A stretch of 64,000 nt of DNA, from assembly GCA_031390425.1 (NCBI GenBank), contig JANMTL010000297.1:1055-65054 (forward strand), given 5' to 3'. The stretch is from Rhizobacter sp. GTDB taxonomy: Bacteria; Pseudomonadota; Gammaproteobacteria; Burkholderiales; Burkholderiaceae_C. Positions 14,669 to 60,590 of the stretch are shown here, piece after piece (position 1 is the first letter of the stretch; each line of letters begins with the position of its first letter). A program made the position numbers and the translations under genes. Under the pieces are notes generated by a model that saw only the letters and a list, made by a program, of their open reading frames with translations, did no database searches and was not told the origin of the DNA.

Positions 14669-14761
14669 GCAACGACAATCACCGGCCCGATGCGAAGCGA
14701 GCTTCAGACCGATTGCCCGGCCGGTTTCAAAGAGTCGTCGAAGACAATAACTCCGAATATC

Positions 14762-15718: not shown

Positions 15719-15832
15719 AGATGTCGGCCGGGTTGCAAGCGAAATTCGGAGGTCAACCGCCGACCACTGAGTTTCGGCTCGGTGTCGCAACGAGTCATTC
15801 GTGATCTGACATTGCGCCTTCGCGTTCGGATC

Positions 15833-16927: not shown

Positions 16928-16948
16928 TTGTCAAAGACTGAGTTTCTA

Positions 16949-18340: not shown

Positions 18341-18341
18341 G

Positions 18342-19437: not shown

Positions 19438-21156
19438 TTGACTCTGAATTCATCCATGCTGTCAGCCGTTGACGCCCCCGCGTCCGATCTGGGTGCATAC
19501 CTGGTCAGCGAGGGGAAACTCAAGTCCCGCGATCTGGAGCGTGCGCTGTCGGCGCAGACCGAGATGGGCGGCACGATCGAGCGCGTGCTGGTCGGCCTCG
19601 GGCTGGTGTCCGAGATCGATGTCGCGACGGCGACCTCGCAATTGCTGAACATCCCGTTCGCCCCGGCTGCCGAGTTCCCCGCCGTGCCGCCCGAGGTCGA
19701 GGGCTTGCTGCCGGACTTCCTGGTGGCCAACAGCGTCTACCCGCTGCGCCGCGAGTCCGATCGGCTCGATGTGGCCATGGCGGACCCTGGCGATGCGTAT
19801 GTGCTGAAGGCGCTGCGGCTGGCCACCGGCCTCGCGATCCGTGCACATGTCGGGCTGCCCAGCGAGATCGACAAAGCGCTGTCGCAGTTGGTCGAAGACA
19901 GCAACGCCACCGCGTCGCGCGACGAGTTCGACGACCTGAAGAACTCCGGCGATTTCGTCGAGCATTTGAAGGACCTGGCCAGCGAGGCGCCGGTGATCCG
20001 GCTGGTCAACGCGATCATCGGGCGCGTCACCGACCTGCGCGCGTCGGACATCCACCTCGAACCGTTCGAAGACGGTCTGCATGTGCGCTACCGGGTCGAC
20101 GGCGTGATCCATGCGGGCGAGACGATCGGCCTCAAGCACAGCGCAGCGGTCGGCTCGCGCATCAAGCTGCTGGCGCACCTCGACATCGCCGAGCGGCGGC
20201 TGCCGCAAGACGGCCGCATCCAGACGCGGGTCAAGGGCCACGAGCTCGACCTGCGCTTGTCCACCGTACCCACCGTTCACGGCGAGAGCCTGGTGATGCG
20301 CGTGCTCGACCGCGCCAGCATCCGCTTCAGCCTCGAAGACATGGGCTTCGAGCGTGACAACCTGGCACGCTTCAACGCGCTGCTGGCGCGCCCGCACGGC
20401 ATCTTGCTGGTCACAGGGCCCACCGGCTCGGGCAAGACGACGACGCTGTATGCAGCGCTGTCGAAGCTCGACTCGGCGACGCAGAAGATCATCACCGTCG
20501 AAGACCCGGTCGAGTACCAACTGCCGTCGATCAACCAGATCCAGGTGCATCCGCAGATCGGCCTGACCTTCGCCGGTGCGCTGCGCAGCATCCTGCGCCA
20601 GGACCCGGACATCATCATGATCGGCGAGATGCGCGACGGAGAAACCGCGCAGATCGCGGTGCAATCGGCACTCACCGGTCATCTGGTGCTGTCGACGCTG
20701 CACACCAACACCGCCGCCGGTGCGGTGGCGCGGATGCAGGACATGGGCGTCGAGAGCTACCTGATCACCTCGGCCGTCAACGGCGTGCTGGCGCAGCGAC
20801 TGCTGCGCACGCTGTGCACGCTGTGCAAAGTGCCCTACGAGCCGTCGGCCGAGCTGATCGAAAGCTCGGGGCTGGCGCGCTTTTCGGCGCCGTCGAAGCG
20901 GCTGTACCGGGCCGTCGGCTGCGAGCAGTGCCGGGGCTCGGGCTATCAGGGCCGCACCGGCATTCACGAGTTGCTGGTGCTGGAAGAGCCGATCCGCAAG
21001 GCCATCATCGAAGGCGTCGATGCCAGCGTGCTCAACACCATCGCGATCCGCGGCGGCATGCACACGTTGTACGAAGACGGCCTGCTGAAGGTCGCGGCCG
21101 GCGTCACCAGCCTCGACGAGTTGTTGCGCGTCACCCAGGACCAGTCGGATGACTGA
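19438..21156 (+). CDS. gspE: type II secretion system ATPase GspE
   Basis: N-terminal T2SSE_N-like domain, Walker A GPTGSGKTT, IIMIGEMRD, and tetracysteine CTLCKV...CEQCRGSGYQGRTG. The start is TTG 19438 or ATG 19456. Confidence 0.9.
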   Translation: MTLNSSMLSAVDAPASDLGAYLVSEGKLKSRDLERALSAQTEMGGTIERVLVGLGLVSEIDVATATSQLLNIPFAPAAEFPAVPPEVEGLLPDFLVANSVYPLRRESDRLDVAMADPGDAYVLKALRLATGLAIRAHVGLPSEIDKALSQLVEDSNATASRDEFDDLKNSGDFVEHLKDLASEAPVIRLVNAIIGRVTDLRASDIHLEPFEDGLHVRYRVDGVIHAGETIGLKHSAAVGSRIKLLAHLDIAERRLPQDGRIQTRVKGHELDLRLSTVPTVHGESLVMRVLDRASIRFSLEDMGFERDNLARFNALLARPHGILLVTGPTGSGKTTTLYAALSKLDSATQKIITVEDPVEYQLPSINQIQVHPQIGLTFAGALRSILRQDPDIIMIGEMRDGETAQIAVQSALTGHLVLSTLHTNTAAGAVARMQDMGVESYLITSAVNGVLAQRLLRTLCTLCKVPYEPSAELIESSGLARFSAPSKRLYRAVGCEQCRGSGYQGRTGIHELLVLEEPIRKAIIEGVDASVLNTIAIRGGMHTLYEDGLLKVAAGVTSLDELLRVTQDQSDD

Positions 21157-22390
21157 TTTTTCATGGCGCGCAGCCGATGCGGGCGGCAAGCTGGTCGAGG
21201 GTCACATCGACGCCAGCAGTCCCGCCCAGGCGATGCAGTTGCTGCGCCAGCGCGGGTTGCTGCCGCTGCGCATAGATGCTTCGTCAAGGGCTGGCGCGGC
21301 GGCCGACGCCAGCTTGCCGGGCCTGGCGCGCGGCAAGGGATCGACCGGCAAAGGCCCGGTCAACAGCGCCGATGTGCTGGCGATCACCTCCGAGCTGTCG
21401 GTGATGCTGCGCGCCGGTCTGGCACTCGACAACGCGCTGCGCGTGCTGGTCGAGATGGGGCACCGGCCGACAGTCGCCGAGATGCTGCAAGGCATCCTCG
21501 AAGACGTGAAAGGCGGCAAGCCCTTGAGCCGCGCGCTCGAAAATCGACGCCGAGTGTTCGGCGATTTCTACATCAGCATGATCCGCTCGGGTGAACTCAG
21601 CGGCCAGATATCGACCGTGATGGAGCGCCTGGTCGAGCACATGGAGCGCCTGCGCGCACTGCGCGAAAACGTCATTTCGGCGTCGATCTACCCGGCCATC
21701 CTGCTCGGCGTCGCGGTGCTGTCGATGATCGGCATGCTGGGCTTTGTGGTGCCGCAGTTCGAGAAGCTGTTCGTCGACATGGGCGATGCGCTGCCACTGC
21801 CGACGCAGCTGGTCATGGGCCTGGGGCGCGGGTTTTCCGAGTACGGTGTGATCGGCGCGCTGCTGCTGTTCGCGGTGATTTTTGTGACCGCACGCTGGCT
21901 GCGCTCGCCCCCCGGGCGGCTGTGGTGGCAATCGTCCGTGCTGCGGTTGCCGATCGTCGGGCCGCTGCTCGTCAAGTACGAACTGACGCTGTTTTCCCGC
22001 TCGCTCGGAACCTTGCTCGGCAACGGCGTTCCGATGGTGGCGGCGCTCAACATCGCGACCGAGACCGTCAGCAACATCGTGCTCAGGAACGCACTCTCGC
22101 GCGTCACACCGCTGGTCAAGGGCGGCACCCGGGTGGTGGATGCGATGTCGGCCACCCAGGTGTTCGAGCCGTTGGCCATCAACCTGATGCGCGTCGGCGA
22201 GGAAACCGGCCGCATGGGCACGATGATGCTGGAGTTGGCCAACATCATGAATCGCGATGTCGAGACCGGCATCAAGCGCGGCCTCACGCTGATCGAGCCC
22301 GCGCTGATCGTGGTGCTGGGCCTGTTGATCGGCGCCATCATCGTGTCGATCCTGCTCGGCATCCTGTCCATCAACGACCTCGCGGTCTGA
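21149..22390 (+). CDS. gspF: type II secretion system inner-membrane platform protein GspF
   Basis: 413 aa with two GspF/PilC repeats and three TM segments. Overlaps gspE by 8 nt. Confidence 0.9.
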   Translation: MTDFSWRAADAGGKLVEGHIDASSPAQAMQLLRQRGLLPLRIDASSRAGAAADASLPGLARGKGSTGKGPVNSADVLAITSELSVMLRAGLALDNALRVLVEMGHRPTVAEMLQGILEDVKGGKPLSRALENRRRVFGDFYISMIRSGELSGQISTVMERLVEHMERLRALRENVISASIYPAILLGVAVLSMIGMLGFVVPQFEKLFVDMGDALPLPTQLVMGLGRGFSEYGVIGALLLFAVIFVTARWLRSPPGRLWWQSSVLRLPIVGPLLVKYELTLFSRSLGTLLGNGVPMVAALNIATETVSNIVLRNALSRVTPLVKGGTRVVDAMSATQVFEPLAINLMRVGEETGRMGTMMLELANIMNRDVETGIKRGLTLIEPALIVVLGLLIGAIIVSILLGILSINDLAV

Positions 22391-22426
22391 TGCCTCGACT
22401 TGCTGAATTTCACCAAGGATTTCTCC

Positions 22427-22867
22427 ATGCTTTCCCCGACACGACGCATCCGCGAAACGCCCAGCCACCGGGGCTTCACCTTGATCGAACTGCTGGTGGT
22501 GCTGGCGATCCTGACCTTGCTGATCGGCCTCGTCGGCCCGCGCGTGCTAGGCCAGTTGGGCGGCGCGAAATCGAAGACAGCTGCGGTGCAGATTGCCGAC
22601 CTGGAAAAGACGCTCGAGCTCTACAAGCTCGACGTCGGCCGCTTCCCGACCACCGAAGAAGGTCTCGATGCGCTCGTCAAGCGCCCCGCCACCGCCAACG
22701 GCTGGGCCGGCCCGTACCTGAAGGGCGGCGCGGTCCCGTCTGACCCGTGGAGCAAGCCGTACAAATACACCGCCACTGGCGACAGCCAGATCGAGATCGT
22801 GTCGTTCGGCTCCGACGGCGCCGCCGGTGGTGAAGGCGAAAGCGCCGACGTGCGCAACACGAAGTAA
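22427..22867 (+). CDS. gspG: major pseudopilin GspG
   Basis: Prepilin leader ending G|FTLIELLVVLAIL with Glu+5. Has the GspG core DPWSKPYKY...IVSFGSDG. Confidence 0.9.
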   Translation: MLSPTRRIRETPSHRGFTLIELLVVLAILTLLIGLVGPRVLGQLGGAKSKTAAVQIADLEKTLELYKLDVGRFPTTEEGLDALVKRPATANGWAGPYLKGGAVPSDPWSKPYKYTATGDSQIEIVSFGSDGAAGGEGESADVRNTK

Positions 22868-22895
22868 GCGCTGCAAGCGATTGCCAGAGTCCGTT

Positions 22896-23345
22896 GTGCG
22901 CCAGGAACGCGGCTTCACGCTGATCGAGTTGCTGGTGGTGTTCGCCATCGCGGCGCTGCTGATCGCGCTGGTACCCAGCGCGTACGGCAAGCTGCGTGAA
23001 TCGGTGCAGTACCGCGACGCGCTGCGCACCGTGATGAGCGACTTGCGTCAGGCCCGGTTCCGAGCCACCTCGCAAGGCACCGACGTGAGCTTCAACGTCG
23101 ATCTGGCCACCGGCCGCTACGGCCTCGATGGTGCGCCGCCGCGAACCCTGCCGCCACCGCTGAAGTTTCGCGTGGTCGTTGCCGATGTCGAACTCGCGCC
23201 GAGTGAGCTGGCATCGATTCGATTCCTTGCCGCGGGCGGCGCGACCGGTGGCAGCGTCGATGTGGTCCGGCCCGCTGGCAACGGCGCGCGCGTCCGCGTC
23301 GATTGGCTCTCGGGCAGCGTTGCGCTGCTCGGCTTGCCGCCATGA
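22896..23345 (+). CDS. gspH: minor pseudopilin GspH
   Basis: GTG start. Leader MRQERG|FTLIELLVVFAIAALL. Size and position fit GspH. Confidence 0.7.
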   Translation: MRQERGFTLIELLVVFAIAALLIALVPSAYGKLRESVQYRDALRTVMSDLRQARFRATSQGTDVSFNVDLATGRYGLDGAPPRTLPPPLKFRVVVADVELAPSELASIRFLAAGGATGGSVDVVRPAGNGARVRVDWLSGSVALLGLPP

Positions 23346-23743
23346 ACGGCCGCATGCAGCGCGGTTTCTCTTTGCTCGAACTGCTGGTAGCGTTTTCGAT
23401 TCTGGCGCTGTCGCTCGGCGTGCTTTACCAGGCCAGCGGCGGCAATGTGCGCGACCTGCAGCAGAGCGAGCAGCACCAGCGCGCCGCCGTGTTGGCCGAA
23501 TCGCTGCTCAGCCTGCGAGACACCGTGCCGTCGGTGGGCTGGGAACAATCCGGCCAGTCCGCTAGCTATGGATGGCGCATCCGCAGCAGCCCGTACCCGA
23601 CTCAGGTCTCCAGTCTCAGTGCGCCGAAATTGCACGAGGTGCAGATCACGATCGACTGGAACAGCGGATCAACGCCTCACCAGTTCGAAGTGGTGACCTT
23701 GCTGCCCGAGCGACAACCGATCGAGCCGAACGGGCCGCCATGA
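23342..23743 (+). CDS. gspI: minor pseudopilin GspI
   Basis: ATGA overlap with gspH. Leader MNGRMQRG|FSLLELLVAFSILAL. 133 aa. Confidence 0.65.
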   Translation: MNGRMQRGFSLLELLVAFSILALSLGVLYQASGGNVRDLQQSEQHQRAAVLAESLLSLRDTVPSVGWEQSGQSASYGWRIRSSPYPTQVSSLSAPKLHEVQITIDWNSGSTPHQFEVVTLLPERQPIEPNGPP

Positions 23744-24420
23744 TGGGGCGCGTGAGACTCGCGTCAAGCAGATCGTGCGCCCGCGGATTCACGCTGGTGG
23801 AAATCCTGGTCGTGATTTCGCTGCTGTCGGTGGTGATGCTCGCATTGGGTACGGCGTTTCGAACCTTCGCACAGACCGAAGTCCGTCTGGATCGCCGCCT
23901 GGAGCTGACGGACGAGTTTCGGATTGCCACAGGTTTCATCAGAACCACCCTCAGCCGAATATCCATCCGCAAACCTGAGCCGGCTTCCGCGGCGGCCGAC
24001 CGCAAAGTACTGTTTAGCGCGGACGCCCGGTCGATCGCCTGGGTTGGGGTGATGCCCGCACGGTATGGCGCCGGGGGTTTGTATTATTTCAGGCTCGCTG
24101 TTGAAAATATCGACAATGACAATACGCTGGTGATCCGATTCAAGCCCTGTAATGATTCGGCGGCATTCCCGAACTGGGCCGAGGTGGAATTCAGAACCTT
24201 GATTTCGAAAATCACTTCTTTCGAAGTTCGATATCAGGACAGCCGCCTGTCGTCGGGCTTGTGGTCAGCGAACTGGAGTCGAACCGACCGTCCTCCAGAC
24301 CGTTTGCAGATTCTCGTCCAGACCCGCGGAGTCGAATGGCCCGAGATCGTGATACCCACCCGCGTGCTTCCCGGGGCCGGTGATCGATCGAGTGCGTTTG
24401 TAATCGGAGGAGGACGATGA
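23740..24420 (+). CDS. gspJ: minor pseudopilin GspJ
   Basis: ATGA overlap with gspI. Leader ...SCARG|FTLVEILVVISLLSV. 226 aa. Confidence 0.65.
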   Translation: MMGRVRLASSRSCARGFTLVEILVVISLLSVVMLALGTAFRTFAQTEVRLDRRLELTDEFRIATGFIRTTLSRISIRKPEPASAAADRKVLFSADARSIAWVGVMPARYGAGGLYYFRLAVENIDNDNTLVIRFKPCNDSAAFPNWAEVEFRTLISKITSFEVRYQDSRLSSGLWSANWSRTDRPPDRLQILVQTRGVEWPEIVIPTRVLPGAGDRSSAFVIGGGR

Positions 24421-25283
24421 GCCGGCTTCCTACAAACACCCCGCTTCACCGAGGCTTCGCTCTGGTGGCGGTGCTCTGGATGGTCGCTGCCTTGAGCATC
24501 ATGGTCGTCGGCATGTTCTACGGGGTGCGTGGAGAAACGCGCCGGGTGTCCCTGTCGCGGCAAAGCGTCGTTCTGGGGGCTCTCGGAACGGCGGCCATTC
24601 ACGTGGTTCTGCAAGAAATGCTGGCTTCGCCGGAACCGATCACGCGCCTTTCCTACAAAGAGGTTGCTTATCAAGGCCGACTGATCCGGGTTGAAATACT
24701 CCCTCTCAACGGGTTGATCGATATCAACAATGCGTCCGAAGCATTGCTCATGAAACTGATTTCTGTTCAAGGTGGCGTCGACTCCGATCAGGCGTTGAAG
24801 CTGGCTCGAAAGACCATTGAAATACGCTCTACCAAAGATCCGTCAGGACAAGTACGAGGATTTGAATCGGTCGAAGACTGGCTCAAGGTTCCGGGTATCG
24901 ACTACACGCTGTACGCTAGAATGAATGGGTTGGTCAGCGTTGATTTGTTGGGTGTCGGGTCGGGTCGCGTCAACGCCCTCGCCGCACCCCGAGAGGTGTT
25001 GACCCTGTTGACTGGCGGCCAGGCGGAACAAGCCTTCCGAATCGCTTCTGATCGAGACGCCGGCCGCATCGGCATCGACACCACCATGCTGAATGCCAAC
25101 GACGTCGAGACGGCCTCCACCAACCGGTATCGCATCTCCGCCCGGGTGCCCGCATCGACCGACACGCAACTCTGGACGACTCAAACCGTCGACATCGCCC
25201 CGATCAAGCGCGACGGCCTGCCCTGGCGCGTCTTCAACGTTGAGCGCCATTTCGAACCCGCACGCCTCGATCGCCTGAACTGA
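24417..25283 (+). CDS. gspK: minor pseudopilin GspK
   Basis: ATGA overlap with gspJ. Leader HRG|FALVAVLWMVAAL without Glu+5, as in GspK. 288 aa with the ING/helix-hairpin-helix-like middle domain. Confidence 0.7.
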   Translation: MSRLPTNTPLHRGFALVAVLWMVAALSIMVVGMFYGVRGETRRVSLSRQSVVLGALGTAAIHVVLQEMLASPEPITRLSYKEVAYQGRLIRVEILPLNGLIDINNASEALLMKLISVQGGVDSDQALKLARKTIEIRSTKDPSGQVRGFESVEDWLKVPGIDYTLYARMNGLVSVDLLGVGSGRVNALAAPREVLTLLTGGQAEQAFRIASDRDAGRIGIDTTMLNANDVETASTNRYRISARVPASTDTQLWTTQTVDIAPIKRDGLPWRVFNVERHFEPARLDRLN

Positions 25284-25295
25284 CCCCACACCACC

Positions 25296-26426
25296 ATGTC
25301 CGCGACGCTGCCCCTGCCTGATTCGCCGCGATCAGAAGCTCAAAGCCTGTGGGCGCGGCTCATCAGCATGATCGGCCGGCGCTATCGCGAGCCGATGCTG
25401 GACGGTTTGACGCCCGACCTGCCGGTGCGTGTGCTGCTCGCCGACGGCGAGGACGCGATGTGGCGCCGGGATGCACCGCTGCAGCCCGCGCCGCCACTGT
25501 TTGCCGCCAACCCGAGCCTGGGCCTCACGGCCATCGAATACCCCGAAGATCGACTGCTGAGGCGTCAGTTCACGCTTCCGGACATGTCCTCTGCCGAGGT
25601 CACGCAAGTCGCCGCGCTCGACGCAGTCACGTCGAGCCCCTTCCGATCGGACGACCTCGTGTGGGGCCATCGCTGCGTCCCGCTGACGCCGGGGAAACTG
25701 CAAATCGACATCGTGCTGGCCTCGCGAAAGCAGGTTCAGCAACACCTGGATCAGTTGGACGGGCGACTGGCGGGCCAGAAGCATCCCGAGGTGTGGGCCG
25801 AAGTGTGGGCATTTGCAGGCGGCTCGACACCTGTAGTCATCCAGGGCTTCGGCGAAGGTCGGAGGGCTCGCCAGCAGGCCTATCAACGCTGGCTGCTGTG
25901 CGGCCTGCTTTTCCTGGCCCTTGGACTGTTGATGGGCATCGCGCTCACCCCCACAGCCCAGTTGAGGATGCGAGCGATCGAGGCCATCGACGCGTTCGAA
26001 TCCCTTCGTCTGAGAACCGCTGCACTGGTGCTGAAACGAGAATCGCTGTCGAAAGCCGCCGGCCAGGTCACGGCCATGGATGAAGTCCTGTCGGATCGCG
26101 TGCGCGCGCTCGAGATCGTGGGACTGCTGACGCGTGCACTGCCTGACGATTCATCCTTGCTCACATTGCAGATCCAAGGCTCGACGGTCAGGCTCACCGG
26201 CCAGACCTCCAACACCGCCGATCTGATGCAAAAGCTGAGCGCTTACCCAGGCCTGCGTGACGTCAAAGCACCCTCTGCCGCGACCCGTCCTTTGGGAGCG
26301 AACAAGGAGAGCTTCTCGATCGAACTCGAACTGACCCCAGAGGGGCTTCGGGATGCTGGATCGAACTGGGCCGCATCGCTTGGTAGCGGTGCAGTCTTGC
26401 CGCAGCAGAAAGCGTCGTCGCCATGA
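25296..26426 (+). CDS. gspL: GspL-like bitopic assembly protein (C-terminal PilN-like domain)
   Basis: 376 aa. Cytoplasmic N-domain, single TM (WLLCGLLFLALGLLMGIAL), and a periplasmic ferredoxin-like end (VRLTGQTSNTADLMQKLSAYPGLRDV). Position is between gspK and gspM. Confidence 0.6.
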   Translation: MSATLPLPDSPRSEAQSLWARLISMIGRRYREPMLDGLTPDLPVRVLLADGEDAMWRRDAPLQPAPPLFAANPSLGLTAIEYPEDRLLRRQFTLPDMSSAEVTQVAALDAVTSSPFRSDDLVWGHRCVPLTPGKLQIDIVLASRKQVQQHLDQLDGRLAGQKHPEVWAEVWAFAGGSTPVVIQGFGEGRRARQQAYQRWLLCGLLFLALGLLMGIALTPTAQLRMRAIEAIDAFESLRLRTAALVLKRESLSKAAGQVTAMDEVLSDRVRALEIVGLLTRALPDDSSLLTLQIQGSTVRLTGQTSNTADLMQKLSAYPGLRDVKAPSAATRPLGANKESFSIELELTPEGLRDAGSNWAASLGSGAVLPQQKASSP

Positions 26427-26977
26427 AGGGCGCCTTTCGTGCGGAACGCATTCCGCTGATCCTCCCGACGATGTTGCTGTTCATGGTGTTGTTTGCTGTC
26501 GGCTTTTATTACCTCAAGGGCAAACACGACTGGGCCACCGACCGCTTGCAGGATGTCGATCAACGCCATGCACGCTTGGCCGGTCTCGAATCCAGTCGCG
26601 CTGAGCTCGACAAGGCCGAATCGACGGCGCGTTCGTCGCTGGCCGTTGGCGTCTACCCCGCGAGCCAGGATGTGAGTCAGGCCGGCAACGACGCGCAGCG
26701 ACGCGTCCGGGATACCTTCACGAAAGCGGGACTTCAGGTGATGAGCAGCCAGGTGCTTGCCGCAAAGATCGACCGGGCGTTCGACCGCATACCGATGGCG
26801 GTTCGCCTTGAAGGCGAGTTGGTGGCATTGCAAGGCGCGTTGACGGTCATTCCAGAACTGTCACCCGCGGTCATCATCGACGGCGTGACGGTGCAAACCA
26901 TCGGCGCCGTCAAGGCCGATGCACCTCAACGTTTGGCGATCCAGTTCAGCCTCTCCGTGTTGCGGGCACGTCCATGA
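26423..26977 (+). CDS. gspM: GspM-like protein
   Basis: 184 aa with an N-terminal TM (LILPTMLLFMVLFAVGFYYL). 4-nt overlap with the upstream gene. Positional equivalent of GspM/XpsM. Confidence 0.6.
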   Translation: MKGAFRAERIPLILPTMLLFMVLFAVGFYYLKGKHDWATDRLQDVDQRHARLAGLESSRAELDKAESTARSSLAVGVYPASQDVSQAGNDAQRRVRDTFTKAGLQVMSSQVLAAKIDRAFDRIPMAVRLEGELVALQGALTVIPELSPAVIIDGVTVQTIGAVKADAPQRLAIQFSLSVLRARP

Positions 26978-27636
26978 GGCGCTACACCTCCCACGCGTTG
27001 ATCGTGTTAAGCCTGATGCTGGTCGGAGTTCTTGCGTGGCTCTGGGTCGACCCGGACGGACAACTGCGTGACGTGAGGTGGACGCCACCAACGGCCATCA
27101 AACCGGAGTTTTTGACGGTGCCACGCGCATTGGCCAAGCGCCAGTCGGCCGACGTGACGCTGGCACTGGAAATATTGGAACGGCCGTTGTTTTCGCCCAG
27201 CCGGCGACCGCCTCCCCCTGTCGTTGTGGCCCCGGTTGCGGCCGAGCCCGCCCCCGATCCGTTGGGTAATGTCTTGATACAGGGCATTTACTCGGGCACC
27301 GAGATGGGAGGCATCATCGCCAATGTCGGTGGCGTGTCGAAGCGCATTTCCATCAATGAGAAGATTGGTGACTGGACCTTGAAAGCCATCGACGAACGCG
27401 ATGTGAAATTCGTGCGTAACGATGAGAGTCGCGTCATTCAGTTGCTGCGTGCACGCCCGGTGCAACCCGCAGTGGCGGGAACCGCCGCCCCGAATCGTTC
27501 GACATCGCAGCCCGCGTCCAACGTATCGCAATCTCAGCTCTCCGTTGTCCAGAAGATGGAGGACGAAGCCCGCGAACTTCTGCGCCGTCGCAACGAGTTG
27601 CGAGCCCGGGCCGGAAGGCCCCCGATCGCCCAATAA
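26974..27636 (+). CDS. GspC/XpsN-like bitopic protein
   Basis: 220 aa. N-terminal TM, Pro-rich linker (SRRPPPPVVVAPVAAEPAPDP), then a small beta domain (LIQGIYSGTEMGGIIANVGGVSKRISINEKIGDWTLKAI) resembling the HR/PilP-like secretin-contact domain. Sits where xpsN sits in Xanthomonas. Confidence 0.5.
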   Translation: MRRYTSHALIVLSLMLVGVLAWLWVDPDGQLRDVRWTPPTAIKPEFLTVPRALAKRQSADVTLALEILERPLFSPSRRPPPPVVVAPVAAEPAPDPLGNVLIQGIYSGTEMGGIIANVGGVSKRISINEKIGDWTLKAIDERDVKFVRNDESRVIQLLRARPVQPAVAGTAAPNRSTSQPASNVSQSQLSVVQKMEDEARELLRRRNELRARAGRPPIAQ

Positions 27637-27647
27637 CCCACGCCAAC

Positions 27648-29930
27648 ATGCTCATTCAACGTCACGTCTTCGCGGTCATCGCCTTGGTGGTTTGCCAGAT
27701 TTCCTGCGCCACCCGAGGGGCAGAGACCGGAGGATTGTCCGCAAAAGACCGGTTGATGGCACAAGAGGCTGCAGCACCCACGTCGCCGACCGAAGCTGCT
27801 CCGGCCGCACCGCTCGTGCGGACGCTTGACGGCGCTCCGCCAGCAGCAGCGTTCGACGACTCGCCTGTTAGCAAGTCCGTCGCCGTTCGCGGCACCGATC
27901 GGGTAATCGCGCCCCCGGCGGCGACGCCTGGCTTGGAAGGCCCTGAAAGCGCATTCAAGTTCGAGGAAACGCCGATCGCCGATGTGGCGCATCTGATCCT
28001 TGGCCAGATACTCAAAGTCGACTACGTGCTGCACAAGCCACTCACCGGCACCGTGACGCTGTCAACCAAAGCAAGCGTGTCTGCCGACCAGGCCGTGGCC
28101 CTCCTTGAAGGCGCACTGCAGGCCAACGGGTTGCTGATGGCGCGGGACTCCCGAGGCGTCTACCACGTCGGTCGGGCAGAGGCTCTCAAAGGCATCGTTT
28201 CAACGCCCCGGCAGGCCGGCGGAGGCGGCCCTTTACCGCCAGGCTACGGCACCGTGATCGTGCCGCTTGAAAACATCGGCGCAGCAGAAATGGCGACGAT
28301 CCTGCGCCCGATGATTGCGCCCGAAGCGCTGGTGCGGGTCGACACGTTGCGCAATCTGCTGGTGCTGGTCGGCACCCGAAATCAGGTCGAAGGTTGGCTT
28401 GAAATGGTGTCGACCTTCGACATCGACTTGCTGAAGGGCATGTCGATCGGTGTCTTTCCGCTGAAGTACGCCTCCATTCGAGACGTCGAATCAACGCTGC
28501 GCATGATCACTCCCGGGTCCGCCACGCCACCAGCGGCCAGCGGGAACGCCCAGAGCCCACTAACGACACCTGGCACGTCGCCCACGGCATTGATCGACAC
28601 GCCGACACTGCTGGGTGGCGTGCGCCTGATCCCGATTGAAAGAATCAACAGCATCATCGTCGTCACCCCGAAAGCCGCCCGCCTCGAAGACATGCGTCGC
28701 TGGATCGACCGCCTGGATCAACCGACCAACAGTGCCGAATCGCAGCTTTTCGTGTACCCCGTTCAGAACGGCTCGGCGCGGCATTTGGCCAAAGTGTTGA
28801 ACGGGATTTTCGGGACGGAGTCCAGCCCGACTGATTCCAACGAATCGAGCTCCGGCGTAGCGCCCGGACTGTCATCCGTCACCGCGGGTCAAGGCGCTCC
28901 ATTGGGTGCCGGCTTTGCGTATTCCGGCGGCGGCGGTACAGGAGGCGGTGGCGGGATCAATGCGGGCACGTCGCGTCAGGCGGGTTCTGCGGCGTCGAAT
29001 GCTCAGTCGGTGACGGCTGTCGCCCTGGGACTCGGCACGCGCCTGATTGCGGACAACCTCAATAACGCAATATTGGTGTATGGAAGCCGCGGCGACTACA
29101 AGAAAATCGAAGACACGCTGCGCAAACTCGACGTGCCGCCGACCCAGGTCCTGATCGAGGCGAGCATCATCGAAGTCACCCTCAACGATGACCTGCAATA
29201 CGGCGTGCAGTGGTTGTTCACGGACAGTTCGTCTGGCAGCACCAATGGCACGGGCGTCCTCAGCACACGCGGCGGCGGCATCCTCGGCGGCCCGTTGGCC
29301 GGGTTTTCTTACACGCTGCGCAACTCTCTCGGCAATGTGCGGGCCGTGTTGAATGCGCTCGCGGAGAAGTCGCTGGTCAAGGTCATTTCGAGCCCCTCTT
29401 TGATGGTTCTCGACAACCACACGGCGGCCATTGCGGTTGGCAATCAACAACCGATCCGCTCTGGCGAGACCGTCTCGACGGGCGGCTTCGCAACGACTAC
29501 GATCCAGTACAAAGATACGGGCGTGTCACTCGCAGTCACGCCGTCGGTGAACGCCGGCAACATCGTCACGATGCAAATCAATCAAGGCGTCACGGACGTA
29601 GGGCAGGTCGATAGCGCGACCGGCCAGCGAACCTTTCTGCAGCGACGCATCGACAGCAAAGTGGCCATTCGCTCCGGCGAGACCCTGGTGCTGGGCGGAT
29701 TGATCCGCGACAACACGACCAACGGCAAGAGCGGGATACCGCTGCTGCAAGACATCCCCGTACTCGGCACACTGTTCGGGAGCAACAACGCGAACAAGGT
29801 TCGAACGGAGTTGCTAGTGGTCATCACGCCACGCGTAGTGCGGTCAGATCAGGACGTCAGGGAGGTCAGTGGGGAAATGCGTCAACGCATGAAGAGCTTC
29901 TCAGCCATCGAGGAGTTGCGTGATCGCTAA
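27648..29930 (+). CDS. gspD: type II secretion system secretin GspD
   Basis: 760 aa. N0 domain starting FKFEETPIADVAHLILGQILKVDY. Secretin core VISSPSLMVLDNHTAAIAVGNQQP...GIPLLQDIPVLGTLFG. The ~100 aa before N0 form a Pro/Ala-rich extension. Confidence 0.9.
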   Translation: MLIQRHVFAVIALVVCQISCATRGAETGGLSAKDRLMAQEAAAPTSPTEAAPAAPLVRTLDGAPPAAAFDDSPVSKSVAVRGTDRVIAPPAATPGLEGPESAFKFEETPIADVAHLILGQILKVDYVLHKPLTGTVTLSTKASVSADQAVALLEGALQANGLLMARDSRGVYHVGRAEALKGIVSTPRQAGGGGPLPPGYGTVIVPLENIGAAEMATILRPMIAPEALVRVDTLRNLLVLVGTRNQVEGWLEMVSTFDIDLLKGMSIGVFPLKYASIRDVESTLRMITPGSATPPAASGNAQSPLTTPGTSPTALIDTPTLLGGVRLIPIERINSIIVVTPKAARLEDMRRWIDRLDQPTNSAESQLFVYPVQNGSARHLAKVLNGIFGTESSPTDSNESSSGVAPGLSSVTAGQGAPLGAGFAYSGGGGTGGGGGINAGTSRQAGSAASNAQSVTAVALGLGTRLIADNLNNAILVYGSRGDYKKIEDTLRKLDVPPTQVLIEASIIEVTLNDDLQYGVQWLFTDSSSGSTNGTGVLSTRGGGILGGPLAGFSYTLRNSLGNVRAVLNALAEKSLVKVISSPSLMVLDNHTAAIAVGNQQPIRSGETVSTGGFATTTIQYKDTGVSLAVTPSVNAGNIVTMQINQGVTDVGQVDSATGQRTFLQRRIDSKVAIRSGETLVLGGLIRDNTTNGKSGIPLLQDIPVLGTLFGSNNANKVRTELLVVITPRVVRSDQDVREVSGEMRQRMKSFSAIEELRDR

Positions 29931-30004
29931 AAATAAGAGTGCGTCTGCGCAGACGCCGGACAAGACATCAGAAATTTACAACCGATTGAAAGATTCATTC
30001 CAAA

Positions 30005-30442
30005 ATGATGCTCAAGGTTCAATGTGTGCGACCGAAATCCAGAGGCGCAGTGTTCTATTCCTTAATTTCCGCAGTCGTTGTGTTGGTCGGAGGGTGCGCC
30101 AGTTTCACGTCGTCCACGCCGGAAGACACCGTTCGAGAACGCGCGAAACAGCGCTGGGTGGCTTTGATGAGCGGCGACACTCAAAAAGCTTACGACCTCA
30201 CCACACCGTCGTTCCGCTCGATCTCCAGCTTTAATTCGTACAAAGCCAAGTTCGGTAACAGAGTCAACTTGCTGGCCGCAGAAGTGGTTTCAGTCACCTG
30301 CGAAACAGAAAAATGCACGGCTGTCGTGCGTGTCGACGCCAGGCCATTGCTCGGTGGTGGATTCGGCAATACACTTACGACCCATGTTGACGAGACTTGG
30401 CTCTTAGAAGATGGCCATTGGTGGTTTTTTCAGAAGCTTTGA
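30005..30442 (+). CDS. small lipoprotein of unknown function (pilotin candidate)
   Basis: 145 aa. Signal peptide with lipobox LVGGC|ASF. No recognisable catalytic motifs. Located 75 nt after gspD. Confidence 0.55.
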   Translation: MMLKVQCVRPKSRGAVFYSLISAVVVLVGGCASFTSSTPEDTVRERAKQRWVALMSGDTQKAYDLTTPSFRSISSFNSYKAKFGNRVNLLAAEVVSVTCETEKCTAVVRVDARPLLGGGFGNTLTTHVDETWLLEDGHWWFFQKL

Positions 30443-30623
30443 CGATGGACCCGCATGGGAGGCCTGCATATCGAAATAAACTGACACGTGTTGCCATTGA
30501 GCAACGTTTCGCATTTGCCAGGCACTCTACCAAACAACCCGTTTTAAGCATGTGCTAGCATTTCCCAGCGCTATCAACGTCGTCAGTAGCTGCGCTGATC
30601 AACTTTTTAAATCTGGAGTTTTC

Positions 30624-32366
30624 ATGAGAAAAAATATTCTCGCTTTGAGTATCACCGCCATCGGTGGGATGGTCATGTCTGGTGCGGCATTCGCTGGCGT
30701 GCAGATTGATGCCAATGGATCAATAGTTCCGGCTTTGCCAACTGCTTCTACTGCTGTCAATTTGGCTATTAGCGCGGATGGCGCAGGGCACATTTTGTTG
30801 GTTCCTTATTTTACCGTTCAAAACGGCAATGCAACGTTGATCAACTTGGTCAATACCGATAAAACTTTCGGTAAAGCTGTGAAGGTTCGCTTCCGCGGCG
30901 CTGCGAATTCCGACGATGTTTTTGACTTCCAAGTTTTCTTGTCGCCTGGTGACGTCTGGTCTGCCAACGTGAGCAAGGGTGCTGACGGTCGTGCAGCATT
31001 GACTACCACGGACAAGTCATGCACTTTGCCCAAGAATGTAAACACGTCCTTTGTGACCGACCGATTGCCGTCGACCTATACCGCTGCTCAAAAAGCTCTT
31101 CAAACGAATGAAGGCTATGTTGAGATTTTTAACATGGGCGACATTCCTAAATCGCGTTACAGCGCGCAGACTGGTCTTGCGCCGTCGGCTTCGTCGTCAC
31201 CAGTCGGCACTGGCGATAATCCGCTGTACCAGGCCATTAAGCACGTCGGCGGTGTAGCACCATGTAACAGCACCGATTCGGTAGTTGCAGCCCAGGCAGC
31301 CGCTACGTTGGCCAGAACCGCAGTTGACACGACTGTTCATGACAACACTACCACTCCATCCAACGCCGCCTTCCAAGGTTTGGCTTTGCCATCCACCGGC
31401 TTGTTTGCAAACTGGACGATCGTCAATGTTCCAGGAACATTGACCTGGACTGGTACAGCAACGGCGATCGTTGCAACGACCAGCGCTGGTACTGCTGGCG
31501 TCGGCAATTTGGTTATGCACCCACAAACGAATGCGCTGATTGGCGCAGCCGCGGCCACAGCTCGTACCAGTGACCCACTCTTGGCCGGTGGCTTTAGAAC
31601 ATTGTCTTCTGCCGGGGTCGGCAGTGATGCAATTGCTGCTCCAATCCAGGCGGCGTTGTTCGATTTTCCTGATTTGTCGACACCTTACATCAGGGTTGCA
31701 CCCGCTGGTGCTGCTGTCACGCCGACAGGGCAGGCTTTGCAACTCACGCAATCACTTGCAGCGACTTCATTCATCAATGAGTATTTGACTGAACCCACGA
31801 TCAATGCCAAGACGGATTGGGTGTTTTCAGCGCCAACGCGCCGGTACAGTGTCGGTTTGAACTATGCAATCGTTTCTCCGGATACGACGTTTACCCGGGT
31901 CTTTTCTAGCTTGGGCGGTGCAGCACAGACGTACCTTTTCAGCGGCAACACCAGCGTGGATACCGGCTTGGGTCAGATCTGTGTATTGAATATCAACCCG
32001 ACCTACCAGGATAGGGAAGAGAATGTTCCTGTCGACGTCACGGATTTCGTGATTTCCCCGGGCGCGCTTGGCGCACCATTGACGTTTTGTGGTGAGGTCA
32101 GTGTGTTGAGTTTCAACAATACGGCCGGAACGTCGGTTCTTGGTGCGTTGATTGCACGTAAGGATATTGATCTGGCGTTTAAGAATGGCTGGGCAACCAT
32201 CGCCACCCCGGGTAACGGAGGTAACGGCTTGGCAGTGATCGGCGCTTCATTCATGAGCGCCTTCAACGGCAATGCCACCCCGGGTGTCTCAGGTAATTAT
32301 GGTTTGTCGTTCCAGCATCGGTACGAGCGTGTGGCTCCTGTAGCGGCACCAACACCAGCACCTTGA
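30624..32366 (+). CDS. 580-aa secreted Ala/Thr/Gly/Ser/Asn-rich protein of unknown family (candidate T2SS cargo / surface-layer-like protein)
   Basis: GGAG RBS 7 nt before ATG 30624. Sec signal MRKNILALSITAIGGMVMSGAAFA|GVQ. Few charged residues and few Cys. Followed by a strong terminator. AT-richer than the surrounding genes. Confidence 0.7.
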   Translation: MRKNILALSITAIGGMVMSGAAFAGVQIDANGSIVPALPTASTAVNLAISADGAGHILLVPYFTVQNGNATLINLVNTDKTFGKAVKVRFRGAANSDDVFDFQVFLSPGDVWSANVSKGADGRAALTTTDKSCTLPKNVNTSFVTDRLPSTYTAAQKALQTNEGYVEIFNMGDIPKSRYSAQTGLAPSASSSPVGTGDNPLYQAIKHVGGVAPCNSTDSVVAAQAAATLARTAVDTTVHDNTTTPSNAAFQGLALPSTGLFANWTIVNVPGTLTWTGTATAIVATTSAGTAGVGNLVMHPQTNALIGAAAATARTSDPLLAGGFRTLSSAGVGSDAIAAPIQAALFDFPDLSTPYIRVAPAGAAVTPTGQALQLTQSLAATSFINEYLTEPTINAKTDWVFSAPTRRYSVGLNYAIVSPDTTFTRVFSSLGGAAQTYLFSGNTSVDTGLGQICVLNINPTYQDREENVPVDVTDFVISPGALGAPLTFCGEVSVLSFNNTAGTSVLGALIARKDIDLAFKNGWATIATPGNGGNGLAVIGASFMSAFNGNATPGVSGNYGLSFQHRYERVAPVAAPTPAP

Positions 32367-32398
32367 TGTGACTGCTTAATCGCGTAAACTGCGATTGT

Positions 32399-32426
32399 AA
32401 AGGGCGGGGTTTCCCCGCCCTTTTTC
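32399..32426 (+). terminator. rho-independent terminator after the secreted-protein gene
   Basis: Stem gggcgggg/ccccgccc (32402-32409 and 32413-32420) with a short loop, followed by TTTTT. Confidence 0.8.
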
Positions 32427-32494
32427 TATTGTCGGTGCCCTATTTGACTCAGTTGGGCGACTGGCTCAACCAAACAACGCAACCTATTGCTTAC

Positions 32495-33373
32495 ATGTTC
32501 AACCTATCTGTCAACTCACTCAAATCAGCGCTGCTTGTCGTCTGCATGGCGCACACGGTGGCCATGGCAGAACCGGCCGTCGTGGTCTCAGGCCCCGGTG
32601 TCAGCGTTGACAGCTCAGACTTGAGCGCCGATGCGCAACGGATTCCCGCGGAGTCCCGAAAGAAGCTGTTGAACAAGCCCGAGAATGTAGTTCAGATGGC
32701 GTCGAACTTGTACGTCCGTCGTGCGTTGGCGGCGGAAGCTGAAACTGCCGGACTGGGCAATGATCCTATAGTCGCCGCAGCAATCAGGCTGGCCAAGGAA
32801 CGCATCCTGTCGGACGCTCGGATGGCGCAACTGGATCTGAAAAACACCCCGCCCAACGACGCGTTGGATCAATTTTCGTTGGCCCGGTATCGAAGCAACA
32901 TCAATCAATATGAAACACCCGCTCAACTCAGCGCGCGACATATTCTGATCAAATCAAAAACCGCAGACGCCCGGGCAAAGGCGGAGAAACTACTTTCCGA
33001 GTTGAAAAGGGGCGCCGATTTCGAGAGTTTGGCAAAGGCAAACTCAGAAGACGCCTCGGCGTCGAAAGGCGGAGACCTGGGTTTCTTTCCACGCGGACGC
33101 ATGATCGCCCCGTTCGAAGCAGCAGTTTTTGCGCTGGCCAAACCCGGTGATCTCAGCGGGATCGTAGAAACAGAAGTCGGCTTTCATATCATCAAACTCG
33201 AGGCCAAGCAAGAAGCGACGGTCAAGCCATTTGAAGAAGTGCGTGATCAATTGCGCAAAGAGACCTTGGCCAATCTATTGAGTGACGCCCGCGGAAGAGA
33301 ATCGCAGCGCGTGCTCAACGGCGCCAAGTTTGAGGCAGCGGCAATCGAAGCGTTTGCAAACAGCCAGCAATGA
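32495..33373 (+). CDS. secreted parvulin-type peptidyl-prolyl cis-trans isomerase (PpiC/EpsD-like)
   Basis: Signal peptide ...VVCMAHTVAMA|EP. SurA-like N-terminal chaperone region. Parvulin core SARHILIKS...GGDLGFFPRGRMIAPFEAAVFAL...GFHIIKLE. Confidence 0.8.
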   Translation: MFNLSVNSLKSALLVVCMAHTVAMAEPAVVVSGPGVSVDSSDLSADAQRIPAESRKKLLNKPENVVQMASNLYVRRALAAEAETAGLGNDPIVAAAIRLAKERILSDARMAQLDLKNTPPNDALDQFSLARYRSNINQYETPAQLSARHILIKSKTADARAKAEKLLSELKRGADFESLAKANSEDASASKGGDLGFFPRGRMIAPFEAAVFALAKPGDLSGIVETEVGFHIIKLEAKQEATVKPFEEVRDQLRKETLANLLSDARGRESQRVLNGAKFEAAAIEAFANSQQ

Positions 33374-33446: not shown

Positions 33447-34241
33447 ATGCTTTGGACTGAAATCAGGGCTTTGTGGCAAGCGCGCGGGTTGGTTTGGGTA
33501 CTTACCCGGCGGGAACTTTCCGCGCGCAACGCGGGGTCGATCGCAGGCACACTGTGGTTGTACGTGCCACCGTTGATGACGATCGCTGCCTATTACCTGG
33601 TGTTCGAAATCGTCTTTTCGATGCGCCTCGGTCAACATGCTCCGGTCGAATCGGTCGGGGCGTACTTGGTGGTCGGCGCCTTGCCGTGGATGGCGTTTTG
33701 CGACGCCATCAACCGCAGCATGAGCAGCCTGATTGACGCGGGCGGCTTGCTCCAGAAAAATCCGCTTCCTCCCGCTTTGTTTCCCGCACGATCGGTGCTC
33801 GCGAGTGCGGTCGTGTTCGGGCCCTTGATTGGTTTGGTCACCATGGCGTACTCACCGATGCATCGGTGGACACCGGCCCTGGTCGCACTGTTGCCGCTCG
33901 CGCTTTTGCAGATGGCACTGTGCTGGTCGATGGGTTACTTGCTGGCGTTGCTGGCGGCTGCCTTGCGCGACGTGCTCGCCGTAGTCGGATTCATGCTGAC
34001 GGTGGGTATTTATCTATCGCCGGTACTCTTTCCCGTCACGATGTTTCCTCCCGACTGGCGCTGGATACTGTGGCTGAACCCCATGGCACCGTTGATCGGA
34101 GGTTATCAGTCGGTGCTGCTCACAGGACATTGGCCCGAGTTGAGCACCTGGGCGGTCACCGTCGTTTGGATCGTCCTGACCGTGTTGCTCCTGGAGGCGG
34201 TCGTCAAGCGCAGTCGCGATCAACTGGCGGATTGGCTGTGA
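33447..34241 (+). CDS. wzm: ABC-2 type polysaccharide export permease Wzm
   Basis: 264 aa with six hydrophobic helices and the ABC-2 family N-terminus (LVWVLTRRELSARNAGSIAGTLWLYVPP). Confidence 0.85.
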   Translation: MLWTEIRALWQARGLVWVLTRRELSARNAGSIAGTLWLYVPPLMTIAAYYLVFEIVFSMRLGQHAPVESVGAYLVVGALPWMAFCDAINRSMSSLIDAGGLLQKNPLPPALFPARSVLASAVVFGPLIGLVTMAYSPMHRWTPALVALLPLALLQMALCWSMGYLLALLAAALRDVLAVVGFMLTVGIYLSPVLFPVTMFPPDWRWILWLNPMAPLIGGYQSVLLTGHWPELSTWAVTVVWIVLTVLLLEAVVKRSRDQLADWL

Positions 34242-42676: not shown

Positions 42677-42713
42677 CCCGCCGATTATCGCTTTGCGATA
42701 CTGCGGGCCCCGT

Positions 42714-46160: not shown

Positions 46161-46583
46161 CTAGCGCGGCGTCAGCAGCGGAATGACCTTGCGGCCGTGC
46201 CGTCGGTAGACCTGGAAATCGGCATCCAGCGTGAAGATGCGGCAGCGCGGGTACAGCTCGCTCATGCGCACCAGGCACGCATCGGCCAGCGATGCGGGAA
46301 CGTTGTCGTAGCGCTCGAACAGCGACTGCACCGCCGCGATCTCGTCGCCCAGCGCCATGCCCACGCACACCACACCACGCGCCATCAGGTTCAATGCCTT
46401 GGCGGGGTCGTGACCGCCACGCGCCAGCAAAAAGCAGGTTTCCGCCACCACCGCTTCACAGGTCAGCAGCGGGCCGGTGATCTGTGCGAACTGGGCGCGC
46501 GACCATTCGTGAAACGCGTCGTCACGGCAGTGCAATGCCACCCACGGCCCAGTGTCCAGCAGCACCGTGGCCGCATCGCTCAC
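46161..46583 (-). CDS. vapC: PIN-domain toxin (VapC family)
   Basis: 140 aa. Acidic PIN residues in LLDTGPW, CEAVVAE, LADACL and TLDADF. 4-nt overlap with the upstream antitoxin gene. Confidence 0.75.
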   Translation of the reverse strand: MSDAATVLLDTGPWVALHCRDDAFHEWSRAQFAQITGPLLTCEAVVAETCFLLARGGHDPAKALNLMARGVVCVGMALGDEIAAVQSLFERYDNVPASLADACLVRMSELYPRCRIFTLDADFQVYRRHGRKVIPLLTPR

Positions 46584-46837: not shown

Positions 46838-46867
46838 GGGGAATGTCCTACCTGTAGGCAAGCGATC

Positions 46868-54909: not shown

Positions 54910-54950
54910 CGGAGCGTCTGCTTCTGTCTGGTTGCCCTGCTGAGACCGCG

Positions 54951-60566: not shown

Positions 60567-60590
60567 AGACAGGGGCTCCGATGAACAGCG

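Follow-up and report, generated by a model that had tools for sequence, protein, structure and literature searches.

The closest described relatives of the system reported here are surface-layer (S-layer) loci built around nanopod protein A (NpdA). In Delftia sp. Cs1-4, NpdA was identified as the S-layer protein through gene disruption combined with immunogold labelling and expression in a heterologous host, and thin-section electron microscopy showed that the S-layer was lost when npdA was disrupted by allelic exchange (PMC3110197). Deletion of npdA in Paracidovorax citrulli AAC00-1 likewise abolished the S-layer, a result obtained with deletion, proteomics and cryo-electron microscopy (cryo-EM), and 12 gsp genes for a type II secretion system (T2SS) upstream of npdA were described as 'largely conserved' in Beta- and Gammaproteobacteria (PMC10765051). 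The same study reported two gsp clusters in P. citrulli with npdA beside gsp1, marked a hypothetical open reading frame (ORF) 'X' in the figure legend of the npdA neighbourhood, and likened the layout to the vapA/T2SS and slr4/T2SS arrangements of Aeromonas and Pseudoalteromonas, respectively (PMC10765051). The words LPS (lipopolysaccharide), O-antigen and glycosyl are absent from the text of that paper, and isomerase, lipoprotein and ATP-binding cassette (ABC) genes are absent from its supplement. Here we describe a 64,000-nucleotide stretch of DNA from Rhizobacter sp. (GenBank assembly GCA_031390425.1, contig JANMTL010000297.1, positions 1,055 to 65,054; hereafter the window), in which an eleven-gene gsp cluster lies directly upstream of a lipoprotein gene and a gene of the npdA family. 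We interpret the locus as a Burkholderiales S-layer biogenesis island that combines NpdA with export by the adjacent T2SS, helper proteins and a glycan anchor, and assign this reading a probability of roughly 0.8.

Comparable arrangements have been described outside the NpdA family. In Aeromonas salmonicida, the ABC-2-dependent wb(salmo) O-antigen cluster carries vapA and the genes of the S-layer T2SS (spsE to spsL and onward) between its wzm and wzt genes, the A-layer is tethered by LPS and a separate housekeeping T2SS is present (PMC4483657). This A-layer locus (sps/aps) resembles the window in having a T2SS run followed by the S-layer gene, contiguous with Wzm/Wzt O-antigen genes, but in A. 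salmonicida wzm and wzt are separated by the S-layer genes, whereas in the window the two remain together 3' of the cargo gene. No sequence relationship between the A. salmonicida S-layer protein VapA and NpdA was seen, although none was searched for, and the A. salmonicida paper reports no parvulin or NTF2-like lipoprotein (PMC4483657). In Pseudoalteromonas tunicata, the S-layer gene slr4 also lies directly 3' of a conserved T2SS operon, its product carries a Sec signal peptide, and a T2SS dedicated to Slr4 was proposed by the authors (PMC7821379; PMC11094555). Slr4 belongs to another protein family and was threaded onto RsaA, in contrast to NpdA, which is without a PDB neighbour; it occurs in marine Gammaproteobacteria, and no linked wzm/wzt cluster has been described for it.

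Two systems with other cargo or another export route can also be set beside the locus. Hxc of Pseudomonas aeruginosa is a second, cargo-dedicated T2SS encoded beside its substrate LapA; the cargo is a phosphate-regulated alkaline phosphatase, and HxcQ is a liposecretin. The Hxc cargo is no structural lattice protein and no glycan cluster accompanies it, and where HxcQ is a liposecretin the corresponding GspD of the npdA loci has a canonical lipobox in only a minority of orthologues. In Caulobacter crescentus, the RsaA gene lies in a cluster with the genes for its own export, and the O-antigen of LPS serves as the lattice anchor (as cited in PMC10765051); RsaA is from an unrelated family and uses type I secretion with an uncleaved C-terminal signal, whereas the window points to Sec plus T2SS.

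With respect to P. citrulli AAC00-1 and Delftia Cs1-4, the window shares the homologous cargo, the gsp order and ORF 'X' of the NpdA and gsp1 arrangement (PMC10765051; PMC3110197), and the P. citrulli locus surveyed by us (L037) further shares the downstream parvulin, wzm, wzt and methyltransferase-glycosyltransferase genes. It differs from P. citrulli NpdA in its longer cargo protein (580 versus 533 aa), which belongs to a different, uncharacterised Burkholderiales lineage, and from both P. citrulli and Delftia in the addition of a lineage-specific glycosyltransferase of family 41 with tetratricopeptide repeats (TPR-GT41), a 297-aa protein and an upstream radical SAM/acyltransferase block. 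A preliminary description of the window, made from its sequence, had not recognised the whole combination as a described system. This view is no longer tenable, as npdA with its upstream gsp cluster has been published (PMC10765051) and so has an S-layer T2SS with its S-layer gene inside a wzm/wzt cluster, in A. salmonicida (PMC4483657). The core system of NpdA and a gsp1-type cluster is thus already known, and the window locus is an uncharacterised further case of it.

The interpretation rests first on the identity of the cargo. The 580-aa protein encoded at 30624-32366 (+) aligned over its full length (residues 1-569) with the orthologue from P. citrulli DSM 17060 at 47% identity (E-value 2e-130). 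This orthologue, encoded at L037, is 533 aa long and has a computed mature mass of 52,399 Da after removal of a 25-aa signal peptide; it was taken as NpdA because this value agrees with the mass of 52,394 Da published for NpdA of P. citrulli AAC00-1 (AAVE_RS20655; PMC10765051). The window protein (mature mass ~56.9 kDa) begins with a cleavable Sec signal peptide of ~25 aa, MRKNILALSITAIGGMVMSGAAFA followed by GV, with the cleavage site between AFA and GV, and this signal is conserved across the family. An alignment of 18 family sequences showed, besides the signal peptide, ~90 invariant positions with four cysteines among them, and the composition of the protein is typical of S-layer proteins, being acidic (isoelectric point 5.2), with abundant Ala, Thr, Gly and Ser and few Cys or Met residues. 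From this homology we conclude that 30624-32366 encodes a predicted S-layer protein of the NpdA family, a family whose hallmarks include a paracrystalline lattice at the cell surface and migration as an SDS-resistant oligomer of more than 150 kDa. The gene has its own ribosome-binding site (GGAG, 7 nt 5' of the ATG) and is followed on the same strand by a hairpin resembling an intrinsic terminator at 32399-32423 (11-bp stem with 8 G-C pairs, then a T run; a consensus match only), as had been noted beforehand.

The protein had also been called an orphan, a label that does not survive comparison with the databases. Although it matched no Pfam or NCBIfam family, a word-indexed search returned more than 2789 relatives, some of them labelled 'cell surface protein' by NCBI, in Burkholderiales, and an exhaustive profile search returned at least 3538 cluster representatives (50% identity) at E <= 1e-3, of which 1062 were found at E <= 1e-30. 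Structural comparison was less informative. The model had a mean predicted local distance difference test (pLDDT) score of 60, with a confident N-terminal beta-sandwich and a C-terminal half of low confidence; Foldseek comparison of the model with the PDB gave no match at E <= 0.001, and the alignment profile gave none against PDB sequences at E <= 1. The only Foldseek matches, to galectin- and LamG-like beta-sandwiches, were weak (E 0.02-0.1, query TM-score 0.1-0.13) and are not taken to indicate a lectin fold.

Upstream of the cargo gene, eleven co-directional T2SS genes occupy 19438-29930 (+) in the order gspE-F-G-H-I-J-K-L-M-C/N-D. This is the E-F-G-H-I-J-K-L-M-N-D order of Xanthomonas xps, and several of the top matches were to Xps-specific models (XpsF, XpsH, XpsI and XpsM). 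Pfam and NCBIfam thereby bear out the eleven-gene, xps-ordered T2SS of the preliminary description, with weak matches for K, L and C/N; family assignment was clear for gspE, F, G, H, I, J, M and D, and the Pfam matches of the core parts GspE, GspF, GspG and GspD (T2SSE, T2SSF, T2SSG and Secretin) were all strong. The overlapping junctions reported at 21149, 23342, 23740, 24417, 26423 and 26974 were likewise found; in each, the ATG of one gene overlaps the stop codon of the gene before it. The ATPase gene gspE (19438-21156), whose product has an MshEN-type N-terminal region, matched T2SSE (2.5e-139), MshEN (8.3e-15) and TIGR02533 (625.8 bits against a cut-off of 630.25), and the inner-membrane platform gene gspF (21149-22390) matched T2SSF (2.2e-53), TIGR02120 (2.9e-105) and XpsF (4.4e-76), the latter two below cut-off (352.8 against 424 for GspF). 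The major pseudopilin gene gspG (22400-22867) matched T2SSG (2.6e-36), N_methyl and TIGR01710 (142.6 bits, above the cut-off of 88.85). The prepilin N-methylation motif (N_methyl) was matched in the three minor pseudopilins GspH (22827-23345, start codon uncertain; GspH model, XpsH 8.3e-14), GspI (23342-23743; XpsI 1.3e-16, TIGR01707) and GspJ (23740-24420; PRK08808 GspJ 1.2e-12). The gspI ORF opens at 23303, and the ATG at 23342 gives a short prepilin leader of the normal kind, while for gspJ the same start was called on an identical Logan contig (L001).

The remaining genes of the cluster include those with the weaker assignments. The gspK-like minor pseudopilin gene (24417-25283) had a weak GspK match confined to the N-terminus (2.7e-7), with position and size kept in related loci, and the gspL-like assembly-platform gene (25296-26426) matched a PilN domain only (2.4e-9), in a slot between gspK and gspM that is conserved. 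The XpsM-type gspM (26423-26977) matched T2SSM_b (1.4e-23) and NF040576 GspM_XpsM (63.6 bits, above the cut-off of 60). The gspC/xpsN-like gene (26974-27636) encodes an N-terminal transmembrane (TM) segment and a Pro-rich linker and gave weak matches (GspC_delta 2.7e-4; Pfam T2SSC 0.02), its product being 30-54% identical to counterparts in related loci. The outer-membrane secretin gene gspD (27648-29930) matched Secretin (2.1e-48), Secretin_N, N0 and TIGR02517 (446.6 bits, above the cut-off of 351.35). In agreement with the preliminary description, no GspO/PilD prepilin peptidase (Peptidase_A24) was found among the larger ORFs scanned in the 64-kb window; the enzyme is presumably encoded in trans, the situation found in Xanthomonas-type systems, and its absence is thus no argument against a working T2SS.

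Two features of individual T2SS proteins were observed in addition. The N-terminus of GspE (19438-19900) matched the NCBIfam cyclic di-GMP (c-di-GMP)-binding 'MshE-related' model NF053729 over residues 18-68 (39.1 bits; cut-off 38); within the MshEN region the first 24-residue motif (xLGxxLVxxGxLxxxxLxxALxxQ) is legible and the second is degenerate. S-layer protein secretion might, judging from this MshEN-like region, respond to c-di-GMP. For GspD, a self-piloting liposecretin of the HxcQ kind was rejected as a general trait, as only ~6 orthologues have a canonical lipobox and signal peptides of the ordinary AxA type predominate. Lipobox-bearing N-termini (e.g. LLSGC, LITGC, LAGC) were seen at L011, L013, L038, L055, L060 and L066, which could be liposecretins, and 'VVCQISCA' at the N-terminus of the window GspD (27648-27720) is ambiguous as a lipobox.

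The association of npdA with its neighbours was evaluated across related genomes. A profile search with the cargo alignment against 185,579 species genomes gave 220 confirmed loci, of which the closest 80 were taken with 10-kb flanks, reaching only to gspE/F on the gsp side. All window proteins were compared with these 80 loci by tblastn, and the denominators given below are the loci with enough flank. The sample covers Comamonadaceae, Sphaerotilaceae and Rhodocyclaceae/Thauera, with representatives of Acidovorax, Paracidovorax, Diaphorobacter, Curvibacter, Rhodoferax, Ramlibacter, Xylophilus, Caenimonas, Giesbergeria, Simplicispira, Comamonas badia, Rubrivivax, Rhizobacter, Azohydromonas and Thauera as well as many metagenome-assembled genomes (MAGs); among these best 80 of 220, the loci nearest to the window came from one Rhizobacter MAG and one Burkholderiaceae MAG.

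The secretin gene gspD was found beside npdA in 66/70 loci, gspM was present in 62/67 and gspG in 58/64. In the window itself, 693 nt separate the end of gspD from npdA, with one lipoprotein gene between them. At the Giesbergeria and Simplicispira loci (L075, L083), the gsp block has the opposite orientation and still adjoins npdA, an inversion likewise noted in PMC10765051, and precomputed Pfam labels provided an independent view of the same gene order in Acidovorax sp. Leaf160. Lack of synteny between the cargo family and T2SS genes had been named beforehand as an outcome that would speak against a dedicated system, and the reverse was observed. Together with the NpdA homology, the 66/70 synteny lends good support to the earlier proposal of an S-layer-like cargo with a putatively dedicated T2SS and a link to an ABC-transporter-dependent glycan. 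At L019, L025 and L045, all in one MAG (JAAFIW01), and at L031, we observed npdA homologues of 43-46% identity that lack gsp, lipoprotein, parvulin and wzm genes within 10 kb; the occurrence of at least three such copies in one genome suggests paralogous or alternative S-layer genes whose products are exported in trans.

The two genes reported on either side of the cargo gene were both found, and each accompanies npdA almost as consistently as the secretion genes, the lipoprotein in 72/76 loci and the parvulin in 69/75. The gene at 30005-30442 (+), which corresponds to the ORF marked 'X' in the published surroundings of npdA, encodes a small outer-membrane lipoprotein with a signal peptide and lipobox. 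The protein matched no Pfam or NCBIfam family; the lipobox Cys31 as well as Cys99 and Cys104 are invariant among 21 homologues, and the core of its AlphaFold model (pLDDT >90) has NTF2-like domains as Foldseek neighbours (best E 2.4e-5), the best of which include RPA3114 and the N-terminal domain of PBP2a. Identity with a known pilotin was rejected, given the confident NTF2-like model and the lack of any PulS/AspS-type pilotin in the top 50 Foldseek matches; a helper role for the lipoprotein is still possible. At 32435-33373 (+), 3' of npdA, is the gene for a secreted parvulin-type peptidyl-prolyl isomerase with a signal-peptide-like N-terminus (Rotamase_3 3.6e-28, Rotamase 3.6e-24), which is PrsA/SurA-like and scored under every equivalog cut-off.

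Glycan genes flank the T2SS and cargo genes on both sides, as the preliminary description had stated, with the correction that the longest ORF at the start of the upstream block opens at 14690 and not at 14762. On the cargo side, wzm (33447-34241, +) encodes an ABC-2 permease for polysaccharide export (ABC2_membrane 2.2e-13; KpsM and Wzm models weak) and wzt (34238-35500, +) encodes an ABC ATPase (ABC_tran 2.5e-20) with a Wzt_C carbohydrate-binding domain (2.2e-6; 28.2 bits against a cut-off of 30.4) that is more distinct in Acidovorax. These are followed by a gene for a 297-aa protein that matched no family (35507-36400, +), the TPR-GT41 gene (36404-38644, -; Glyco_transf_41 2.5e-79 plus TPR repeats), a gene for a 1371-aa methyltransferase-GT2-GT4/GT1 protein (38672-42787, -; Methyltransf_23 1e-20, Glycos_transf_2 2.2e-13, Glyco_trans_1_4) and a GT2 glycosyltransferase gene (42492-43679, +; Glycos_transf_2 7.3e-16) whose true start is probably after 42787. 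The upstream block (14690-19286, +) comprises genes for a radical SAM/SPASM protein (14690-15718), an acyltransferase_3 (15782-16927) and a membrane protein with ~9 TM-like segments (16928-18340), followed by a gene (18222-19286) for a GT2 that is similar to polyprenyl-phosphate hexose synthases. In the surveyed loci, wzm was found in 64/74 and wzt in 64/73, positioned 3' of npdA and the parvulin gene at a median offset of ~2.8 kb, and the 1371-aa methyltransferase-glycosyltransferase was found in 55/65; the 297-aa protein (29/70) and TPR-GT41 (7/65) were patchy.

In ABC-transporter-dependent O-antigen systems, methylation can end the chain, the resulting cap being recognised for export. Given this established knowledge, the 1371-aa methyltransferase-GT2-GT4 protein fits a methyl-capped, cap-recognising export pathway and is a candidate for the enzyme that would both polymerise the O-polysaccharide and terminate its chains. 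A glycan that anchors the lattice would be the most economical reading of these linked genes when taken together with the requirement for LPS in the in vitro reassembly of the Delftia acidovorans S-layer, a result from Engelhardt's work in the form in which it is quoted in PMC3110197.

Two TPR-fused enzymes flank the island, a TPR protein with a 2-oxoglutarate (2OG)-Fe(II) oxygenase domain (11071-12786, -) and TPR-GT41, and both had been counted as part of the system. A conserved role for them in S-layer modification is unsupported by the survey: TPR-GT41 is present in just the seven loci given above, and matches to the TPR-2OG protein elsewhere coincide with TPR cross-matches. Only a small number of closer relatives share the GT41 protein (L008, L042, L043, L044, L047 and L059).

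Alternatively, wzm/wzt and the flanking glycosyltransferases may constitute an ordinary O-antigen or capsule cluster that is functionally unlinked to the S-layer, with surface genes simply pooled in a variable low-GC island. The composition of the region is in keeping with this possibility. The window has a G+C content of ~64%, at which genuine reading frames can be distinguished by the G+C content of third codon positions (GC3), and the island extends over ~11-43.7 kb between fatty-acid oxidation genes and ahpC/ahpF. GC3 was 0.86-0.89 in the flanks and gspE/F and 0.74 in gspD; for the lipoprotein gene, npdA and the parvulin gene it was 0.60, 0.54 and 0.62, respectively, and it rises thereafter. 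Such a drop over the island (0.54-0.75) is typical of exchangeable surface-polysaccharide loci. The trough fits a cassette with an exchanged or fast-evolving cargo end, or the special codon usage of a very highly expressed gene, and a second trough was observed at 15.8-18.3 kb over the acyltransferase and ~9-TM genes. The patchiness of TPR-GT41 and the 297-aa gene, the nine loci with no wzt nearby and the silence of the 2023 NpdA paper on LPS and O-antigen (PMC10765051) would also agree with an unlinked glycan cluster. Against it stand the position of wzm/wzt 3' of npdA in the great majority of loci, the LPS dependence of Delftia S-layer reassembly in the quoted form noted above (PMC3110197), and the LPS anchoring of the A. 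salmonicida and Caulobacter S-layers, with the Aeromonas S-layer genes lying inside the wzm/wzt cluster (PMC4483657). We therefore regard a functionally unlinked glycan cluster as rather unlikely, although it is the alternative that survives best.

A further possibility is that the gsp cluster is a general-purpose T2SS for many enzymes, of which NpdA is merely an abundant substrate encoded next door. The pleiotropic virulence defects of the P. citrulli double-gspG mutant (PMC10765051) are consistent with broad use, export must occur in trans for those npdA paralogues that have no gsp cluster nearby, and the presence of a second T2SS cannot be read from the window alone. However, npdA and gsp genes are adjacent in 66/70 loci from at least three families, including those with inverted clusters, P. 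citrulli has a second gsp cluster (PMC10765051), and no hydrolase-like secreted proteins are encoded beside the window gsp cluster. T2SSs dedicated to the S-layer are, moreover, established in Aeromonas (PMC4483657; PMC7821379). A system not dedicated to NpdA is accordingly considered improbable. It is more improbable still that the 580-aa protein is a diverged NpdA-like adhesin or soluble exoprotein and no lattice former, since its 47% identity to the nearest experimentally characterised member, the low-confidence C-terminal half of its model and the one of 16 additional npdA-carrying cultures without an NpdA-like layer by cryo-EM are outweighed by full-length collinearity with NpdA that includes the invariant positions and four cysteines, the identical slot in the same gene order, the S-layer-typical composition and the layer present in the other 15 of those 16 cultures (PMC10765051).

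Several observations weigh against reading the locus as an NpdA S-layer biogenesis island. The T2SS dependence of NpdA export was named as future mutational work, and in the sole P. citrulli T2SS mutant reported gspG was deleted in both clusters (PMC10765051). In the window, gspK, gspL and gspC/N were assigned mostly by size and position, their family matches being weak or partial, gspE and gspF score under the NCBIfam equivalog cut-offs, and the NpdA model is mediocre, with no significant PDB neighbour. Adjacency to a T2SS is not obligatory, as demonstrated by the four paralogue-like npdA loci without one, and nine of the loci with enough flank lack wzt near npdA. For the glycan, parvulin and lipoprotein, the proposed roles derive solely from conserved adjacency, and Burkholderiales are over-represented in the counts, as the 80 loci were the closest of the 220 matches.

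If the island interpretation is correct, the NpdA precursor would cross the inner membrane via Sec, with removal of the ~25-aa signal peptide evident in its sequence. Folding would then take place in the periplasm, where the four invariant cysteines suggest two disulfides and where the parvulin encoded downstream, to judge from its conserved adjacency, probably aids folding or prevents premature assembly. The adjacent Xps-order T2SS, whose pseudopilins GspG-K would be processed by a prepilin peptidase encoded elsewhere, is expected to drive NpdA through the GspD secretin, as synteny and the Aeromonas precedent suggest. At the surface, NpdA would crystallise into an LPS-held lattice, probably anchored by the O-polysaccharide of the Wzm/Wzt pathway, the chain end of which may be methyl-capped and read by the Wzt_C domain. 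The NTF2-like lipoprotein would be a conserved accessory factor that, speculatively, could assist the secretin or attach the lattice. The likely role of the layer is that of a protective coat, for instance against Bdellovibrio, and of a nanopod casing, as in characterised NpdA layers.

This scheme can be extended, tentatively, to a proposal that we regard as possible rather than probable: the T2SS, lipoprotein, npdA, parvulin and Wzm/Wzt genes may form one self-contained, horizontally exchangeable S-layer cassette, in which the parvulin would act as a dedicated secretion-competence chaperone, the lipoprotein as a new secretin helper or lattice anchor and the methyl-capped O-polysaccharide as a specific lattice receptor, and in which c-di-GMP gating through the MshEN-like N-terminus of GspE might occur. 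None of these accessory roles (parvulin chaperone, lipoprotein helper, O-polysaccharide receptor, c-di-GMP gating) was described in the NpdA literature found.

The remainder of the window carries genes that lie apart from this system. A 2000-aa protein encoded at 46868-52870 (-) has UvrA features in doubled form (two interaction-domain matches, a DNA-binding domain and several ABC ATPase P-loops) and, by its domain content, looks like a double-length UvrA paralogue. Two small toxin-antitoxin-like pairs were observed at 46161-46861 (-) and 60165-60866 (-), the first combining a PIN with a ribbon-helix-helix protein and the second a PIN protein with a VapB antitoxin. At 52771-54909 (+), the real gene encodes a 712-aa hybrid histidine kinase with PAS, HisKA, HATPase_c and receiver domains; long minus-strand ORFs at 52831-54162 (-) and 54247-55035 (-) were rejected as genes, being Arg-rich antisense shadows with no family.

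In summary, the analysis provides a firm annotation, that of an NpdA S-layer island, for a locus whose central genes have no Pfam or NCBIfam name. It goes beyond the published picture in the near-universal co-travel of the lipoprotein, parvulin and Wzm/Wzt genes with npdA, and in the size of the family, for which 3538 or more cluster representatives (50% identity) compare with the 111 species listed in 2023. The lipoprotein, parvulin and Wzm/Wzt proteins thereby become concrete candidates for the export, folding and anchoring steps of NpdA. As NpdA layers are found in plant pathogens (Paracidovorax) and wastewater bacteria and appear to guard against Bdellovibrio predation, the annotation is also of some practical interest.

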